Of a DNA stretch of 64,000 nt, positions 17,410 through 64,000 are shown piece after piece. The DNA comes from a virus. The position numbers were made by a program, and so were the translations under genes. The stretch covers positions 18,366-82,365 of the IMG/VR virus record IMGVR_UViG_3300032282_005530; one strand, 5' to 3'. Under the pieces are notes generated by a model. That model saw only the letters and a program-made list of their open reading frames with translations. It was not told the origin of the DNA and searched no databases. Every line of letters begins with the position of its first letter. Positions within the stretch are counted from its first letter, which is position 1.

Positions 17410-18738
17410 TTATATACTCAATTTAAATGCATTTATTATTTTATAAGTAGCATTGTATAATTTTGAGCCTCGTTTAGAAGGTATAAAAGAAAACAAATTT
17501 TCTCTTCTAAAAATAAATGAACTTCCAAACATAGGATCATTACATATATAATTACCTTCTGGATCTTTTTTATATGCCATTATATAATGATCTCCTATTC
17601 CATCTTGTCCAAGATTAGTTTCACTTCCAATTTTGTAATCAACATGTAAAATGGCTACTGAATTACTATCAATGGTTTCATCGATAAATTTTTTTAAACT
17701 TTCTAAATCAGTAGAGGGGGCGCTTGAAACATATCTTATATTTAAAGAATTAGCAAGTTGCGTGCGATCAATTACAGCGCCAACAGAATTAAATATTTTA
17801 AAATTATAATTTTCTAATTTTTTTTGTGTTTCATATTTTTTAATTATTTCATATGATTCCTTCGGATTTATAGTTTCTCTTTTTAAAAGCCAATTTCTAG
17901 ACATAGTATAACAAGTAACAAGACAACCAATACTGCTGAAGCTTTTACTTGTATCGCCACCAAGTTTTAAGGTTCTCCAACCTTCTTCTGCTTGCCAATA
18001 AGCAGGTGTAGGTGGAGAATTTATGATTGTAACATCACAATTTTCTCTTTTTTCACAATTATCGATATTTTGTTTTGGTTTTGCTATTTCTTCATCTTGT
18101 TTATTAACTATATTTTCTTCTATCTGTGAAACGTTCAATTCAGAAATAAAACTTCTTTCTTCTTCTGTTAATTGAGTAAAAGTATTATTTTCTTTACTTA
18201 TAATTTCATAAAAACCCTTTATTCGCTCTCCGCTTTCTTCTGTTGCATTAAAATAATGTATCTTTACTCTCTCTCCTTCTAAAGGTCTCTTTTGAGAAGG
18301 ATCTAAAGGAGCAAACAAATCATGCTCTGATACTGAATTCATGAATTCGAATTTTAAATTTTCCCTTTCTTGTTTTGTTAATCTTGGAGTTATTTTATCT
18401 AAAATATTTTGTGGATTAGTTTTAGAAGACTTATCAAGTTCTGTTCTAGCATAAACACAGAAGCCCTCTAAATATCCTGGTGATTGTTGTTCACCCATTT
18501 GTTGGTTTAAATGATGTGATAATAATTTATATTTTATTTGAGTAACCGGAGATAATACTACTACTCCAACAAATGTTGATGGAAGAGGTGTTTTATCTTG
18601 CTCTTCAATAGTCTTTTGAAAATTATAAAATCCGCTTCTTGGCTGTTCTACTCTACTATCTGCTTTTCTCTTTCTATACCATGTAGATGTATCATGTGGT
18701 ATACTAAGGCCTTTTTTTCTATAAATATTTTCAGCCAT
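17410..18738 (-). CDS. Baseplate hub-associated protein with C-terminal peptidase C39-like domain
   Basis: SIGCLVTCYTM (Cys), DHYIM (His), CNDP (Asp) papain-like triad. Confidence 0.6.
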   Translation of the reverse strand: MAENIYRKKGLSIPHDTSTWYRKRKADSRVEQPRSGFYNFQKTIEEQDKTPLPSTFVGVVVLSPVTQIKYKLLSHHLNQQMGEQQSPGYLEGFCVYARTELDKSSKTNPQNILDKITPRLTKQERENLKFEFMNSVSEHDLFAPLDPSQKRPLEGERVKIHYFNATEESGERIKGFYEIISKENNTFTQLTEEERSFISELNVSQIEENIVNKQDEEIAKPKQNIDNCEKRENCDVTIINSPPTPAYWQAEEGWRTLKLGGDTSKSFSSIGCLVTCYTMSRNWLLKRETINPKESYEIIKKYETQKKLENYNFKIFNSVGAVIDRTQLANSLNIRYVSSAPSTDLESLKKFIDETIDSNSVAILHVDYKIGSETNLGQDGIGDHYIMAYKKDPEGNYICNDPMFGSSFIFRRENLFSFIPSKRGSKLYNATYKIINAFKLSI

Positions 18739-36627: not shown

Positions 36628-36656
36628 AGTATAACACCGATCTCCCGGTCTGTCAA
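36628..36656 (-). promoter_or_regulatory. sigma70-type promoter for tRNA-Leu
   Basis: TTGACA-N17-TATACT, GATC in spacer. Confidence 0.75.
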
Positions 36657-41851: not shown

Positions 41852-41878
41852 ATTTAAATCTCTCTAAAATTAAGTCCG

Positions 41879-41962
41879 ATGTTTAACCCGGATTCGAACC
41901 GGGATGCCATAACGGCGCTATAAACTACTTTATAGTGAGTCTACCAATTCCTCCAGTAAACA
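41879..41962 (-). ncRNA. Aberrant tRNA-Leu-like element (pseudo-tRNA)
   Basis: Intact D arm (GAG-GAATTGGTAGA-CTC), variable arm and T arm (CCCGG-TTCGAAT-CCGGG); non-canonical anticodon arm; no CCA. Confidence 0.6.
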
Positions 41963-54973: not shown

Positions 54974-55201
54974 TTATTTAACTACTTTGTAATATCCAAA
55001 AATTTCATTTTCTATACGCCATTTTATTATCGATTCAAATATTTCTGTTTCTAAAGCCATATCATTCCACAATACTGAATATACGTATTCTCCATCTAAA
55101 GCATCAAAATATACGCCAGTTATTAATCCGGAAGACAAGTTTAATCCATCAACATATTCTGTTAATAAGTCTCCTATAGAATATAATGGCGGTTCATTCA
55201 T
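54974..55201 (-). CDS. Hypothetical SH3-like protein
   Basis: IGDLL..GLI..YSVLW. Confidence 0.5.
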   Translation of the reverse strand: MNEPPLYSIGDLLTEYVDGLNLSSGLITGVYFDALDGEYVYSVLWNDMALETEIFESIIKWRIENEIFGYYKVVK

Positions 55202-59035: not shown

Positions 59036-59104
59036 ATTTTTAGAGATGTTTTAGATTTTTTGAGAATTCTTGACGCAGTGCGAAAAGTCAAAATCTCTAA
59101 AAAT
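59036..59104. repeat. 12-bp perfect inverted repeat at the compositional junction
   Basis: ATTTTTAGAGAT (59036-47) and ATCTCTAAAAAT (59093-104). Confidence 0.6.
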
Positions 59105-59214
59105 TTCCCGTGTGTTGTGGGGGTACTTAGTACAGATCACCCACCCTCCCACCTATAGGGACATACATTCCGGGGAATGGGGGACCTGTGTCCCCCGTCA
59201 CAGTATACAGTTGA

Positions 59215-59385
59215 TCAATCGTTCCAGTGCGCAGTAGCAATAGTGATCACGCGACAAGGCCATTCACGATCAGCTGTAGGATAGATGCCAGCGTCACGCA
59301 TGCGCTCAACCTGAAACGCTGTATAGATCAAAGAGATGATCGGGTCACGGCTGAAAGGTGAACGGAGATACATAAAGTTTTGCAC
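59215..59385 (-). CDS. Small hypothetical protein (GTG start likely)
   Basis: AAGGA RBS; follows the 59397-59585 gene. Confidence 0.45.
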   Translation of the reverse strand: MQNFMYLRSPFSRDPIISLIYTAFQVERMRDAGIYPTADREWPCRVITIATAHWND

Positions 59386-59396
59386 TGTGTATCCTT

Positions 59397-59585
59397 TCAA
59401 GCGTTGGCAGCGGGGATATATTCGCACACTTCGTTGATCAGTTCATTGATCAGATCAGCACAATAGGCAATCTCATCGTGATCATCGTTGTCGAAAGCCA
59501 CAAGCAAACAGCAGTCAAGCTGACGGAAAGATTGCATCATGGCGATATTGGAGAACTGTTCGGCGAGGTGCTTGGCGTTGTTCAT
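59397..59585 (-). CDS. Small leaderless hypothetical protein
   Basis: TTGTGA-N17-TACAGT (59592-59620), then 6 nt, then ATG. Confidence 0.6.
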   Translation of the reverse strand: MNNAKHLAEQFSNIAMMQSFRQLDCCLLVAFDNDDHDEIAYCADLINELINEVCEYIPAANA

Positions 59586-59654
59586 GCGATCACTGTATCC
59601 CGATCACGTGGAGATCACAAGCGCAAGAACAGAAAGTTGTGATGCAGGTCACAC

Positions 59655-59713
59655 TTGCAAGGATCATGCCAGCGGGCACAAACCGGGTCGGCGCCCCTGG
59701 CATGGTTTATGCA
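59655..59713. promoter_or_regulatory. Divergent sigma54-type site pair, copy 1
   Basis: TTGCAAGGATCATGCCA-N26(ACCGGGTCGG)-TGGCATGGTTTATGCA. Confidence 0.75.
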
Positions 59714-59729
59714 AGGGGATCCGGTAGGG

Positions 59730-60011
59730 TCACAGATCCCAGTTGAAATCCCAGTTGACGGAACGCATATTCTGTGCGTTGGCGATCGTCAGTTGCGACT
59801 GATACACCCGAAAGGATGCATCGCCATCGTGATCCGCTTCTTCGTTGACAGCGTCAAGGATCTGTGCTGCTTCCGAGCGGCGGATCGCACGGTTCCACGC
59901 TGCCTTGGCATTACGACGCAGAGACGGCGTGCCGTTGCACATCGGGCACATGCACGACTGATAGCCCTTGCGGGCGTGGTTGTAGTTGGCGAGGGTGCGA
60001 GCGGTGTTCAT
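59730..60011 (-). CDS. Leaderless hypothetical protein (CxCxxC)
   Basis: TTGACA-N17-TAAGGA (60018-60046), then 6 nt, then ATG. Confidence 0.6.
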   Translation of the reverse strand: MNTARTLANYNHARKGYQSCMCPMCNGTPSLRRNAKAAWNRAIRRSEAAQILDAVNEEADHDGDASFRVYQSQLTIANAQNMRSVNWDFNWDL

Positions 60012-60046
60012 AGGTGATCCTTAGCAGAGAGATCGTGAGGTGTCAA

Positions 60047-60298
60047 TCAGTAATCGGCGGTGTTGTAGGCTTCCCAGATCAGGTGCTGCAACGCGCAATC
60101 GTATTCGTTGTGTTCCTGCTGATTCCAGATCTGGAACGCATAGGAATCAAAGAGCGGAGCACCGTCGTTGATCGTTTCGTCATCGTTGAAAAGAGCTTCA
60201 ACGTGCGAGCGGTCGCAGATCAAACGATCGTAATCGTTGCAACCGACAAAGAAGTTAGCGGGAGGAAGGACGGCACCGGGCTTGGTCGTGTTGTTCAT
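60047..60298 (-). CDS. Leaderless acidic hypothetical protein (start MNNTTK)
   Basis: TTGACG-N17-TACGTT (60305-60333), then 6 nt, then ATG; second promoter at 60378-60406. Confidence 0.6.
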   Translation of the reverse strand: MNNTTKPGAVLPPANFFVGCNDYDRLICDRSHVEALFNDDETINDGAPLFDSYAFQIWNQQEHNEYDCALQHLIWEAYNTADY

Positions 60299-60420
60299 GC
60301 GATCAACGTAGCGGCTCCCGTTCATACCGTCAAGCGGTGTTCTTGTGTTGTTGTGATAGCGGTCACATCGGCGGCGCACATTAGCAGATCCGTTCTGGGG
60401 TGTCAATCTTTCTTTCTCTC

Positions 60421-60479
60421 TTGCAGGAATCGTGCCAAGGGGCCAAAACCGGTTCGGCAGGCTTGGCACGTTTATTGCA
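60421..60479. promoter_or_regulatory. Divergent sigma54-type site pair, copy 2
   Basis: TTGCAGGAATCGTGCCA-N26(ACCGGTTCGG)-TGGCACGTTTATTGCA. Confidence 0.8.
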
Positions 60480-60511
60480 TACGTGATACAGATCACACAA
60501 GCCGGGTTGAC

Positions 60512-60538
60512 AAAACAAAACCCGCCATCTAGGCGGGG
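60512..60538 (-). terminator. Rho-independent terminator
   Basis: CCCGCC-TAGAT-GGCGGG-TTTTGTTTT. Confidence 0.7.
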
Positions 60539-60567
60539 TCTGCTCTTATTCCATTATGTGATCGCGA

Positions 60568-60894
60568 TCACGGACGCTTGCTGGGACACTTGACAGCGAC
60601 AAGACCGAGGCCAGCGGGCACCGTTGCCTGAGTTGCGAGACGACCGATCCACGCACCTTGCTTTGTCAAACGAATGTTGCGATTGCTTCCCGTCACAAGA
60701 CGCCGAGCACGCAACGCCGTCAACGACGTCTGACAAGCAGCGGGACCATGAAGGAAACGCAGCGTGTCAAGATCAACCGGCGAACCGAGCGAGGTCATTT
60801 CTGCGATGTGAGCGATCATCGCGGTTTGACGAGCACCGATCGTGGTCGTGGATCCGTAGTTCTGTGCAGCGAGGGTCTTGTAGTTGTTCGCCAT
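60568..60894 (-). CDS. Winged-helix-like DNA-binding protein, paralog A1
   Basis: LRARRLV..IRLTKQG wing motif; GGAG RBS; promoter TTGACA-N17-TACTCT at 60975-61003. Confidence 0.6.
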   Translation of the reverse strand: MANNYKTLAAQNYGSTTTIGARQTAMIAHIAEMTSLGSPVDLDTLRFLHGPAACQTSLTALRARRLVTGSNRNIRLTKQGAWIGRLATQATVPAGLGLVAVKCPSKRP

Positions 60895-61115
60895 TGTCTC
60901 TTTCTCCGTTGTTCTCTGCGTTGCGTTATGTGACGGAGGGCTAACCCGTCTTACTTACCGGCCCTCATGCGTACAGAGTACACGGTGATCGCTTGACTGT
61001 CAACGCTGGCGCACTCGCAGATCACTTTCGCTTGTGTGCAGGATCACAACGATCCGGCTTGCCTTGCTGGAATGTCTTTGCTAATGTCTGCAACTTTTTT
61101 TCTTTCTATCCCGCC

Positions 61116-61174
61116 TTGCAAGTTTCGTGCCAGCGTACACAAACCGGTTCGGGCGGCTTGGCATGGTTCTTGCA
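61116..61174. promoter_or_regulatory. Divergent sigma54-type site pair, copy 3
   Basis: TTGCAAGTTTCGTGCCA-N26(ACCGGTTCGG)-TGGCATGGTTCTTGCA. Confidence 0.8.
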
Positions 61175-61281
61175 TAGAGCCTGCTTTCTGGGGGCGAACA
61201 CTAGCAGAGAGATCGCGGACTGTCAACGGGCAAAGAGGTGATCCCGGTACAGTAGAAAGTGATCTCCCACGAGCACGACGC

Positions 61282-61310
61282 TTGACGGCAGAGCGATCAC
61301 CCGCTATACT
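61282..61310 (+). promoter_or_regulatory. sigma70-type promoter
   Basis: TTGACG-N17-TATACT; divergent partner TTGACA-N17-TAGTGT on minus strand at 61198-61226. Confidence 0.7.
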
Positions 61311-61375
61311 GGTCAGGTCGGAAGGGTTCGCGGTTGCCGCCGACACTAACCTAAACCGCTTGTCGGAGTCTGAAT

Positions 61376-61774
61376 ATGTCGCAGAATGTCGCCCCCGTCC
61401 GTAAGGTTCGCGTCACCGCTCAACACGTTGCGTTTCTCGCGTTGACTGAGACTGTAAACGCTGTCACGGCCCTGCACAATACTCCGGGATCGGAGATTGC
61501 CCCTGCCACGTTCGACGCTGCGGTTGAACTTCTCGCGGGTCGTCCCGATGTCCGCGAGGCTCTTGAGGGTCTGCGTTCCGACCTCTTTGGTGAGGGTGGA
61601 TCGGGTGAGCGTGGCCGTCCGGCTGCAAAGATCGGTGAGTCTCGCGGATACAAGGTTCAGCAGGTGGGAGATTCGGATCCGTTTATCCGTCTGCCCGTCT
61701 CGCTCCTTGGTCTTTCCAAGGGTGGAACCGCCACCGTGACCTTCGACAATGGTGTGATCCGCGTCAAGGGTTGA
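61376..61774 (+). CDS. 132-aa protein with C-terminal AbrB/MazE-like swapped-hairpin domain, paralog B1
   Basis: YKVQQVGDSDPFIRLPVSLLGLSKGGTATVTFDNGVIRV; GGAG RBS. Confidence 0.65.
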   Translation: MSQNVAPVRKVRVTAQHVAFLALTETVNAVTALHNTPGSEIAPATFDAAVELLAGRPDVREALEGLRSDLFGEGGSGERGRPAAKIGESRGYKVQQVGDSDPFIRLPVSLLGLSKGGTATVTFDNGVIRVKG

Positions 61775-61823
61775 CCTATTGACAAGGGTTTGCGGTCATC
61801 CTCCGAAACCGCTGTCCTCTTGC

Positions 61824-61862
61824 AAGCCTCCCGTCAAGGGGGGTTTTTGTTTTTCTTTTTTC
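61824..61862 (+). terminator. Rho-independent terminator
   Basis: GCCTCCC-GTCAA-GGGGGGT followed by T-rich tail. Confidence 0.7.
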
Positions 61863-61885
61863 TGCCCGTGATCTGAATCACAGGA

Positions 61886-61942
61886 GCAAGAATCGTGCCA
61901 ACCCGGGCGAACCGGTTCGGAAAGGCCGGCATAGTTTTTGCT
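61886..61942. promoter_or_regulatory. Divergent sigma54-type site pair, copy 4
   Basis: GCAAGAATCGTGCCA-N26(ACCGGTTCGG)-CGGCATAGTTTTTGCT. Confidence 0.75.
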
Positions 61943-61969
61943 ATGCCATTCCTTTCTGTATGTTGTGTT

Positions 61970-62335
61970 TTATTTTCTGACTGGCATGTTTGTTGCAACG
62001 AATCCAAGACCCTTTACAATACTGCTACGATGAACCATCATAGCAACGTCAAAGCCTCTTGCGGTGACTTGATAACAACGACCGCGACCACCAGCACGCT
62101 TGATAAGTTTACGACCGAGCAAAACCATGATCACGCTTTCAATAGTACTGACAGGATGATGATCTTTCAGACTTTCCACACTACAGTTTGCACCATTCTT
62201 GTTGGCGATGAAAATATCATAAATGACAGAAACCTGCCGTGGACCGATTGTGCTGGTTGAGCCGTAGTTTTGTTTGGCATACTGATCGGCCTTTTTGTTG
62301 CGACGGCGTTGGGCTTGCGTGTTAGTCGTTCCCAT
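61970..62335 (-). CDS. Winged-helix-like DNA-binding protein, paralog A2
   Basis: Shares AxQNYGSTxTIGxRQ and GLGxVA with 60568-60894; YQVTARG; promoter TTGCCG-N17-TATAAT at 62386-62414. Confidence 0.6.
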   Translation of the reverse strand: MGTTNTQAQRRRNKKADQYAKQNYGSTSTIGPRQVSVIYDIFIANKNGANCSVESLKDHHPVSTIESVIMVLLGRKLIKRAGGRGRCYQVTARGFDVAMMVHRSSIVKGLGFVATNMPVRK

Positions 62336-62503
62336 TTTCTCTTGCCTTTGCTGGGGTTTTCTGTTCGCCGGGACGGCTTGAGATCATTATACCCGGTGAT
62401 CGCTTGACCGGCAAGGGTGACGCTTCCGAGCCGGGGAAATAGTTTGTGGCGGTTTTCATCGTTTTATTTGGTGGGGGTGATAGAGATCACAAAAAATAAA
62501 ATC

Positions 62504-62562
62504 TTGCAATATTCGTGCCAGCCTCACAAAGCCGGTTCGGGCACCTTGGCATGGTTTATGCA
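62504..62562. promoter_or_regulatory. Divergent sigma54-type site pair, copy 5
   Basis: TTGCAATATTCGTGCCA-N26(GCCGGTTCGG)-TGGCATGGTTTATGCA. Confidence 0.8.
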
Positions 62563-62643
62563 AGACCTGAACTTTGTGATCCATAACACACTGTTCGCAC
62601 CGCAACGCTTGACGGCAGGGCAGATCGCTGCTACACTAACCCC

Positions 62644-62796
62644 ATGACGATCATGCACCTCTCTCTCGCGGAACTGGCAAACATGAACGATGACGCTTGG
62701 ATCTGGAAGGATGACATGATGGTGTGGCCGGAAACGGATCATCCCATCGCTGAGTGTTTCTCTGAAACCAACAGCGACGATTGCAGCGACGATTGA
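62644..62796 (+). CDS. Leaderless 50-aa highly acidic protein (not in track)
   Basis: MTIMHLSLAELANMNDDAWIWKDDMMVWPETDHPIAECFSETNSDDCSDD; TTGACG-N17-TACACT (62609-37), then 6 nt, then ATG; terminator follows. Confidence 0.6.
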   Translation: MTIMHLSLAELANMNDDAWIWKDDMMVWPETDHPIAECFSETNSDDCSDD

Positions 62797-62844
62797 TCGC
62801 CATAACATAGCCCGAAAGGGACAGCAATAGCAAAACCCTACACT

Positions 62845-62876
62845 AAGCCCCGATTACAGGGGCTTTTTCTTTTTTT
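62845..62876 (+). terminator. Rho-independent terminator
   Basis: AAGCCCC-GATTACA-GGGGCTT-TTTCTTTTTTT. Confidence 0.75.
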
Positions 62877-62894
62877 GTGTGCCGGAAACGTCGC

Positions 62895-62953
62895 TTGCAA
62901 GTATCATGCCAAGCCTGCCGAACCGGGTCGGAACCCTTGGCACGTATTGTGCA
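62895..62953. promoter_or_regulatory. Divergent sigma54-type site pair, copy 6
   Basis: TTGCAAGTATCATGCCA-N26(ACCGGGTCGG)-TGGCACGTATTGTGCA. Confidence 0.8.
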
Positions 62954-62966
62954 AGGGCCGTTTGTC

Positions 62967-63155
62967 TCAGTAGTTGTCGTTTTCCCGGATTGCATTCCAC
63001 AGTTCACCGGCGTTGCTGACAGTTCGCCAGCCCTTGGGAGTTTCAATATCCCACACCTTGTCCTTGTCGTCCCAGAAGAACTGCCAACCCTTTACGTTGA
63101 TCGTGGCGAAGCCGACGTTGATTGCCATCTTCTCTTGGATTTCGTTGTGGTTCAT
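62967..63155 (-). CDS. Leaderless Trp-rich hypothetical protein (start MNHNEI)
   Basis: TTGACG-N17-TACAAG (63162-63190), then 6 nt, then ATG. Confidence 0.6.
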   Translation of the reverse strand: MNHNEIQEKMAINVGFATINVKGWQFFWDDKDKVWDIETPKGWRTVSNAGELWNAIRENDNY

Positions 63156-63215
63156 AGGGATCTTGTAGCAGGTGATTGCTAATCCGTCAAGCATTGATCT
63201 TTTTTCTTCTATCCC

Positions 63216-63274
63216 CTGCAACATTCATGCCAACACTGCAAAGCCGGTTCGGCCGGGCTGGCACGCTTTTTGCA
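63216..63274. promoter_or_regulatory. Divergent sigma54-type site pair, copy 7
   Basis: CTGCAACATTCATGCCA-N26(GCCGGTTCGG)-TGGCACGCTTTTTGCA. Confidence 0.8.
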
Positions 63275-63511
63275 GGACCTGGACTCTATGATTCACGTCA
63301 CACTATGGCCCCGGTCACAAGGGGGCGGCACACTAGCAGATCACCTACAACCCGTCAACCCCCGATCCGTGTGACCAGTCGCACAGATAAAAGTGATCTG
63401 CAACGAGCACGACGCTTGCGCTTTCTACAGATCGCGGCTACAATGGGGAGGTCGGAAGGGTTCGCGGTTGCCTCCGACACTAACCTAAACCGCTTGCAAG
63501 AGGATCACACC

Positions 63512-63910
63512 ATGACGAACACGATCAACAACGCTCGCAAGGTTCGCGTTACCGCCCAGTCGGTCGCTTTCATGATGCTGACGGAAAGTGCCGATGCGGT
63601 GCTTGCTTCGCATAGCAAGCCCGGTCACGAGATCGCACCCGCTACCTTTGAGGGTGCCTTGGAACTCCTCGCGGGTATGCCTGAAAAGCGTGCAGCCCTT
63701 GAGGCTCTGCGTTCCGATCTCTTTGGTGAGGGTGGAACGGGCGAGCGTGGTCGTCCCGCTGCCAAGGTTGGCGAATCGCGGGGTTACAAGGTGCAACAGG
63801 TCGGCGATTCCGATCCGTTTATCCGTCTGCCGGTTTCTTTGCTCGGTCTGGCAAAGGGTGGTGTTGCAACCGTGTTCTTTGACAACGGTGTGATCCGCGT
63901 CAAGGCTTGA
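63512..63910 (+). CDS. 132-aa AbrB/MazE-like domain protein, paralog B2 (true start MTNTIN)
   Basis: Same length as and high similarity to 61376-61774; GAGGA RBS; promoter TTGCGC-N17-TACAAT at 63416-63444. Confidence 0.65.
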   Translation: MTNTINNARKVRVTAQSVAFMMLTESADAVLASHSKPGHEIAPATFEGALELLAGMPEKRAALEALRSDLFGEGGTGERGRPAAKVGESRGYKVQQVGDSDPFIRLPVSLLGLAKGGVATVFFDNGVIRVKA

Positions 63911-63922
63911 TCGCCTAGACGG

Positions 63923-63951
63923 TTGACAGCCGCTAGCCCCCCGGCTACAAT
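63923..63951 (+). promoter_or_regulatory. sigma70-type promoter
   Basis: TTGACA-N17-TACAAT. Confidence 0.7.
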
Positions 63952-64000
63952 AGGGGGCACCTAGCGGATCGGGAACGACATAAACAGTCCCCGAATCCGA

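Follow-up and report, generated by a model that had tools for sequence, protein, structure and literature searches.

Back-to-back sigma54-type sites held 26 bp apart at gene boundaries in a GC-rich island of AT-rich freshwater myophages

Sigma54 is the one bacterial sigma factor whose RNA polymerase holoenzyme stays silent on DNA until an ATPase fires it; the enhancer site for its AAA+ activator usually lies 80-150 bp upstream, and in Escherichia coli hycA/hypA and zraP/zraSR are divergent sigma54 pairs with a common enhancer. Here we describe another arrangement of such sites, found in a 64,000-nt stretch of viral DNA (hereafter the window) that forms the final 64 kb, positions 18,366 to 82,365, of the 82,365-bp IMG/VR record IMGVR_UViG_3300032282_005530, estimated by CheckV to be 44% complete, for a whole genome of about 185 kb. 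Between 59656 and 63274 the window carries seven 58-bp mirror-image elements (E1-E7), each made of two outward-facing halves of the sigma54 -24/-12 type, with a gap between the halves of exactly 26 bp in seven of seven. These elements share with bacterial RpoN promoters the TGGCAYG-N4-TTGCW boxes, the GG-N10-GC spacing, the occurrence of outward pairs and the presence of palindromes at enhancer-like distances (79-98 bp) from the opposite half. Unlike bacterial divergent pairs, however, their -24 boxes lie only 26 bp apart, leaving no room for an enhancer between them, and they combine an invariant gap with a palindrome at -40 and with halves (6 of 14) that have no sense gene.

The use of sigma54-type sites by phages is already known. 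Pseudomonas phage YuA is reported to depend on both sigma70 and sigma54 (Ceyssens et al. 2008, cited in PMC10914365) and was the one phage reported as a sigma54 user in the literature searched. YuA is likewise a phage with host sigma54-type promoters, but the portion of PMC10914365 available to us describes a single sigma54-like promoter region, P015, detected by ONT-cappable-seq, and no paired, fixed-spacing modules bracketing genes. Orphan and intragenic sigma54 sites of E. coli offer a second comparison, since they bind inactive holoenzyme, often have no gene start nearby and are in some cases antisense (Bonocora et al. 2015, PMC4591121, in the part available). They resemble the present sites in that many of them lack a nearby gene start, antisense sites included, but they are described there as single, dispersed and mostly intragenic, without the partner, core or fixed geometry seen here.

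A third comparison concerns architecture rather than sigma factor: promoter-early/stem-loop (PeSL) cassettes of T4-like myoviruses, on which there is reportedly also a paper by Arbiol et al. from 2010 (PMC2839356). As far as the accessible text goes, PeSLs are short conserved regulatory cassettes that lie between small variable genes of a hyperplastic region and offer places at which modules are exchanged (Comeau et al. 2014, PMC4122927), all of which they have in common with the elements described here. A PeSL, by that account, consists of a sigma70 early promoter and a terminator stem-loop, whereas the present element consists of a sigma54-type pair around a central palindrome and gives no stem signal. 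Our literature searches returned no description of paired or arrayed sigma54 sites in phages. The term undescribed, which the original prediction applied to the whole system, can be kept for the fixed paired layout, which looks new; it does not extend to sigma54 in phages, given the YuA precedent and the frequency of clustered boxes in viral contigs.

Anatomy and conservation of the elements

Pattern scans of the window bore out the original prediction of seven elements with invariant spacing and a conserved core, each half fitting the extended -24/-12 consensus. The pattern TGCCA-N26-YGGCA gave 13 strand matches at seven loci, against 0.01 expected, and a count of 13 or more was reached in none of 100 shuffles; six elements matched on both strands and E4 on the plus strand only. 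The half-site pattern TGGCAY-N6-TGCW gave 14 matches where 0.39 were expected over the whole 64 kb, every one of them within 59656-63274. Thirteen of these are halves of E1-E7, and halves aimed at gene 3' ends fit the consensus as well as those aimed at gene starts. The right half of E4 reads CGGCAT...TTGCT and was hence missed by this pattern, with its GG and GC still present. The fourteenth match is a lone plus-strand site at 61982-61997, within the 3' end of gene F121 and 55 bp past the weak right half of E4, and the same lone site occurs in three related loci (L014, L145 and L147). Without mismatch, the core RCCGGKTCGG was confined to the seven elements in the window scan. As a separate observation, the weak right half of E4 forms part of a small hairpin (GGCATAG-N5-CTATGCC, 61928-61947) that is kept in L014 and is possibly the F121 terminator.

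Conservation was assessed on 80 distinct elements from 29 sources, namely the window and 28 further loci. Their consensus was cTTGCAa-N4-cRTGCCA-N6-CCGARCC/GGTTCGG-N6-TGGCAYG-N4-tTGCWag, the slash marking the centre. TGC of the -12 box on both sides, the central CCGG and the T before GCCA were each present in 80 of 80 elements, and none of the three was demanded by the search pattern. The original prediction had partly hinged on selective conservation of the GG and GC positions in relatives; the -12 TGC counts bear this out, while the GG, being fixed by the search pattern, gives no independent evidence of its own conservation. The base that follows the -12 GC was always A or T (51 and 29 on the right side, 67 and 13 on the left), and C5, G6 and G7 of the core were kept in 79-80 of 80, while positions between the blocks were near random at 0.1-0.6 bits. 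A direct comparison of six orthologous element pairs between the window and L014 agreed with this, as block positions were identical at 202 of 227 and other positions at 93 of 132 (p = 2e-5).

The two sites are also kept together. Among 286 half-sites, 260 were paired. The gap measured 26 bp in 126 of the pairs, whereas three others had 27 bp and a single one 16 bp; overlapping loci are included in this count, and many unpaired sites lie right at the end of a contig. Each family genome holds 14 to 28 strong sigma54-type sites, and if the GC of the -12 box is numbered -12/-13, the palindrome is centred at about -40 of both sites. What is conserved is the pair and not the single site. An invariant gap, obligate symmetry and the core suggest that selection acts on an assembly of two holoenzymes with a dimer at the centre rather than on two independent promoters. 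The core had been proposed as the site of a third factor between two holoenzymes; the conserved palindrome, exclusive to the elements, stands, and a dimeric factor bound there would be one way to account for it.

We then considered the element as a folded structure. Complementarity between the arms at variable positions was no better than that of permuted arms (z ≤2.3, mostly negative), and Rfam returned no family, its three matches (E 0.27-0.8) all lying far under gathering scores. The absent arm covariation ruled out a hairpin, a cruciform, a miniature inverted-repeat transposable element (MITE) or an attC element, and together with the lack of an Rfam family it points to a set of protein sites rather than to structured RNA or a cruciform. 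As a cis-module, the element is genuine and its conservation strong.

Gene boundaries, promoters and flanking palindromes

The elements lie at the boundaries of small genes. As had been predicted, nearly every intergenic gap holds one: seven of the eight gaps between the nine small genes of the island (A to I, some of them named below with their length in amino acids), the exception being the 35-bp gap between genes B and C. Gene directions in the window were taken from open reading frame (ORF) and homology evidence and not from the automated map, which is noisy. Two elements lie in tandem gaps, three in divergent and two in convergent ones. E1 (59656-59713) stands between tandem minus-strand genes, its left half aimed at the start of gene A and its right half at the 3' end of gene B; the left half of E2 (60422-60479) is aimed at gene C and the right half at a terminator and the 3' end of gene D (D108). 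The divergent gaps are those of E3 (61117-61174; D108/E132), both halves of which face gene starts and which is 98% identical to its L014 counterpart, E5 (62505-62562; F121/G50) and E7 (63217-63274; H62/I132). The convergent gaps hold E4 (61885-61942; E132/F121), the element with the weakened right half, and E6 (62896-62953; G50/H62), which lies 14 bp from the H62 stop codon. Altogether 8 of the 14 halves face gene starts, at 70-220 nt, and 6 face gene 3' ends, so placed that every transcription unit has a half pointing inward from each of its two ends. Another family locus, L013, shows the same boundary layout, although its automated gene map is noisy, with ORFs drawn across elements.

Terminator-like hairpins at 61824-61846, before E4, and 62845-62865, before E6, agree with the earlier placing of these two copies between convergent gene ends past terminators, and intrinsic terminators adjoin E2, E4 and E6. 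The further statement that neither half has a sense gene to drive is right for E4 and E6 and does not carry over to the whole set, given the eight halves that face a gene start. The genes have sigma70-like promoters of their own, as had been stated: a consensus scan identified promoters for the genes at 61376, 61970 and 62644 and one more at 63923, the remaining island promoters being assigned by reading of the sequence. Two leftward sites of the form TTGAC-N17-TAGTGT (minus strand, 61198-61226 and 63332-63360) were likewise noted by reading and are absent from the consensus scan. As promoters they would transcribe through E3 and E7, which would place the element in a long 5' leader or in a separate RNA. 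The E132 and I132 genes also share a conserved 5' leader of about 65 nt (61311-61375 and 63446-63511) with a GTCGGA...TCCGAC stem.

A second class of palindromes flanks the elements. With up to one mismatch, TGTGA-N6-TCACA matched 11 sites in the window, all 11 of them in the island (59187-63385) against 2.17 expected, and none in the other 59 kb. By sequence these fit a CRP/FNR-type operator, and we take them to fit a NifA-type TGT-N10-ACA enhancer as well. Centres lie 39 bp from the element centre at 59638-59653 (left of E1, with the start of gene A about 60 bp downstream), 60482-60497 (right of E2) and 61867-61882 (left of E4). For the palindromes at 62476-62491 (left of E5), 62575-62590 (right of E5, and 61.5 bp upstream of the G50 ATG) and 63287-63302 (right of E7) the distances are 50, 49 and 49 bp. 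The same ladder of distances recurs in each divergent locus of the family: of 71 palindromes near 73 elements, 20 were centred at 39 bp, 23 at 48-50 bp and 6 at 57-59 bp. Relative to their own half these palindromes sit at about -1, +9 or +18, which is equivalent to -79, -89 or -98 of the opposite half, and 38 of the 73 elements have a palindrome at one of these last three positions. In the window, two palindromes are followed about 61 bp downstream by an apparently leaderless gene start (59585 and 62644), which is the geometry of a class I CRP site. In the parts of the two reports available to us, CRP is described as an inhibitor of sigma54 promoters (PMC3900584, PMC1865078).

The island, its phage family and wider occurrence

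All elements, and every sigma54-type site of the record, lie in a GC-rich tail of 4.9 kb. Composition profiles gave 22-37% GC for the record up to about 59100 of the window and about 55% from there to the record end, so that the island (59100-64000) is cut off by the end of the contig. An assembly chimera at this switch was ruled out, since the same switch and the same kind of elements occur internally in other contigs. A pattern derived from the elements retrieved three further IMG/VR contigs, with 8, 8 and 9 elements, which with the source record (G000) make up the family records G000-G003 (16-46% complete). In G001 the island spans 11.0-15.3 kb of 82.6 kb and in G003 17.7-22.7 kb of 36.4 kb, in both cases enclosed by AT-rich sequence. 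A stricter pattern added 26 stretches from JGI and ENA metagenomes and one contig of a metagenome-assembled genome (MAG), and many of these metagenome contigs also hold the switch internally; the islands of the family in other samples have 55-59% GC and 8-14 elements inside contigs of about 30% GC.

Elsewhere the record codes for a baseplate wedge protein, PhoH, glycosyl- and cytidyltransferases and 10 tRNAs, and it therefore belongs to a large myovirus; the family as a whole consists of large AT-rich freshwater myophages. A DNA search of the phage collection gave no match to this phage. The baseplate protein of the nearest isolates, Microcystis phage Mel-JY01 and the Flavobacterium 'immuto' phages, shares only about 29% identity with that of the record, which is too distant to give the host, and a cyanophage test with Photo_RC found no match in G000-G003. 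The phage tRNAs (35839-42823) mostly carry T at the wobble position and so read A-ending codons. Near them stand strong sigma70-like promoters with GC-rich spacers in the style of the island promoters, at 36656, 39993 and 32098 (minus strand), corresponding to record positions 55021, 58358 and 50463, and two of the three carry GATC. This tetranucleotide is four-fold over-represented in 59100-64000 (78 against 18.8 expected), where GATCAC and GTGATC together number 28 against 2.4 expected; much of the excess is due to the CRP-like palindromes, and GATC is also found in the spacer of most island sigma70-like promoters, some of them assigned by reading. From the wobble bias and the GC-rich, GATC-bearing spacers we infer that the host may be richer in GC than the phage, and the island may be a host-like early region. 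Two further features lie apart from these subjects: about four tandem copies of a 27-bp unit at the start of the record, outside the window (G000:C1:1-110), and a tRNA-like gene called by ARAGORN at 41878-41962 with a four-base 'anticodon' (gtag), adjoining tRNA-Glu.

Within the family the island is both conserved and mosaic. The window and L014 are 85% identical across 3.4 kb, and the L014 island extends about 1.3 kb further, where two more elements have a 27-bp gap. Identity between the two varies from 70 to 99% per segment, and one gene module has been replaced, at 62954-63258 of the window, in a swap bounded by E6 and E7. Among the half-spacers, each 13 bp long, a few types recur, one of which accounts for 43 of 160 halves (L013, L014, L140-L165), and these half-element types re-assort into 52 type pairs, as if elements recombined at the central CCGG. 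Since they are repeated, the cassettes also act as joints for the exchange of gene modules.

The proteins of the island are conserved across loci at 31-99% amino-acid identity, and its ORFs are for this reason real genes, although none gave a match of any weight in Pfam, PHROG, NCBIfam or PADLOC. D108 (60568-60894, minus strand) is a winged-helix-like protein by a model of pLDDT 72 and, by alignment, a paralogue of F121 (61970-62335, minus strand), the second winged-helix-like protein; Foldseek matched the D108 model to MntR/DtxR/MarR winged-helix domains with weak E values of 0.018-0.13 (prob 1.00, TM about 0.54). On this model D108 is a candidate binder of one of the palindromes. E132 (61376-61774, plus strand), 132 aa long and conserved, with a helical N-domain and a beta C-domain, and I132 (63512-63910, plus strand) are paralogues with 76% identity. 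An 'AbrB-like' label for the 132-aa protein could not be confirmed, with no Pfam match at E ≤1, no Foldseek match and only an Atlas lead of 0.79, and a search for relatives with this protein found only three contigs, all already in the family set.

Beyond this family, back-to-back sigma54 pairs with gaps of 11-41 bp occurred in at least 118 IMG/VR stretches, against 11 in the reversed control, and face-to-face pairs were equally frequent (at least 120 stretches). The N26 form gave 35 stretches in 185,579 bacterial genomes where about 9 were expected (18 fixed bases, 596 Gb), which is near chance, and only 1 of the 35 belongs to this phage family. Among the matches listed, unrelated viral contigs fell into gap classes of 16-18, 20-21, 26-27 and 32-38 bp with none at 23-25, in a count that treats related contigs as independent and over-represents the N26 class because of the prior complete N26 scan. 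One unrelated viral family (L044, L056, L065, L122, L128 and others) has back-to-back pairs with a 20-bp gap around a GGCGCGCC palindrome, and another (L029, L046, L078, L096, L130) has such pairs with a 37-bp gap. In four Microcoleus/cyanobacterial assemblies (L185, L190, L194 and L202) a conserved back-to-back N26 pair lies between genes together with a third perfect site. To our knowledge cyanobacteria lack sigma54, and these contigs may come from associated bacteria or phages.

Possible functions of the module

We propose that each element would act as one rigid, two-fold symmetric protein-binding module. It would comprise two outward sites for the host sigma54 polymerase (-24 TGGCAYG, -12 TTGCW) whose -24 boxes are held 26 bp apart, with the 14-bp palindrome CCGARCC/GGTTCGG between them, at about -40 of both, where a dimeric DNA-binding protein most likely sits. 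The elements stand at the ends of nearly all small transcription units of the island, which is rich in GC and dense in promoters. The host sigma54 holoenzyme is probably what binds the boxes, because the fit to the consensus extends to secondary positions. It would dock on both halves as a closed complex, and firing would hinge on an ATPase activator, which the phage fragments searched do not encode and which might act either through the phased TGT-N10-ACA/CRP-like palindromes 79, 89 and 98 bp upstream of the opposite half or from solution. If the modules fired, eight halves would yield sense transcripts and the other six antisense ones. Firing would be favoured by the eight sense-facing halves and by palindromes at enhancer-like, helically phased distances, and docking without firing by the six antisense halves, the lack of an activator among our matches and the position at boundaries. 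To the reading as a whole, a stereospecific docking or bidirectional promoter module for the host sigma54 polymerase with a central dimer site, we give about an even chance.

Several observations weigh against this proposal. Six of the halves point into gene 3' ends, and with a factor site at -40 there is no space for an enhancer loop of the usual kind. Since each flanking palindrome overlaps or adjoins the start predicted for its own half, these palindromes might just as well act as operators or as class I CRP sites of the sigma70 promoters. In G000-G003, all of them partial, searches with Sigma54_activat and Sigma54_DBD returned nothing over cut-off; one weak AAA+ match (13.5 bits) was to a 353-aa ATPase in which no GAFTGA motif was seen. 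The 1.6-Mb MAG G011, which holds the family contig L197, gave no Sigma54_DBD match, which is weak evidence, binning being no proof of host. A phage-encoded activator or sigma54 was likewise not found in five other phage records with sigma54 clusters, which are fragments except for G010 (99% complete).

Among the alternatives, docking without any firing survives best, doubtful as we hold it to be. Around each early unit with strong transcription, two closed sigma54 holoenzymes flanking a central dimer would form a boundary, an insulator, a topological barrier or a block to read-through, a role that suits the symmetry, the strict spacing and a placement at boundaries regardless of gene direction, convergent gaps included. 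It would also agree with the failure to find an activator in G000-G003 and with each gene having its own sigma70-like promoter, by scan or by reading. Against it, intrinsic terminators already stand beside E2, E4 and E6, and the intragenic sigma54 sites of E. coli left overlapping genes unaffected, the authors excluding roadblock repression in the part of their paper available (PMC4591121). The original prediction had also put forward antisense shut-off switches and polymerase anchors for genome entry as conjectural roles.

The boxes might instead be read by another phage or host DNA-binding protein, for example one of the winged-helix or 132-aa paralogues, their likeness to sigma54 sites being convergent. 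Small proteins that may bind DNA occur in the island as paralogous pairs of at least two families, and boxes, core and flanking palindromes recur about 11-12 bp apart on one helix face; the lack of an rpoN match in G011 points the same way. We nevertheless consider this rather unlikely, as the secondary sigma54 positions (Y and R after TGGCA, TT before GC and W after it) are kept in 160 of 160 halves, and many unrelated viral contigs have similar boxes around different centres.

As the phage genome replicates, the array might titrate sigma54 or its holoenzyme from the host in the manner of a sponge or decoy and so silence a host sigma54 regulon. This reading would draw on the number of strong sites per genome, on the absence of an activator from the searches above and on the frequency of arrays in viral contigs over the reversed control, set beside near-chance occurrence in bacteria. 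Such a device could do without a strict 26-bp gap, a conserved palindrome at the centre, phased palindromes on the flanks or a copy at each boundary, and the sites here are dispersed as single modules at gene boundaries, all of which makes it improbable. That the elements are selfish or recombinogenic repeats (PeSL-like, MITE-like or attC-like) with a merely secondary regulatory look, as the swap bounded by E6 and E7, the mosaic identity, the re-assortment of half types and the duplicated gene modules of the island might suggest, is the least credible of all, given that conservation is limited to the protein-site blocks and does not cover the whole repeat, that the arms show no complementarity, and that a gap so exact, with GC and CCGG invariant, speaks for selection on binding.

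More speculatively, the modules may not be promoters at all. In this tentative view, which we think improbable yet worth stating, they would form a phage cis-device that exploits the non-firing closed sigma54 complex by setting two host holoenzymes on one fixed helix face, back to back around a phage-specified dimer, with CRP-like proteins alongside. If this were true, each early gene would be enclosed by a nucleoprotein boundary of large size, either as a topological insulator or as a trap for polymerase, a use of sigma54 undescribed for any cell or virus.

The proposed docking or promoter module would be of interest on either outcome. If the modules fire, they would represent a compact bidirectional sigma54 promoter with a regulator at -40, which would challenge the rule of the distant enhancer; if they do not, a new viral DNA device built from a host enzyme. 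At about 60-120 bp the module is small, and its 80 natural variants reveal which bases matter. For this family of myophages, a rigid module is kept under strong selection at the gene boundaries of the island, a region that looks like an early or regulatory centre of the genome.

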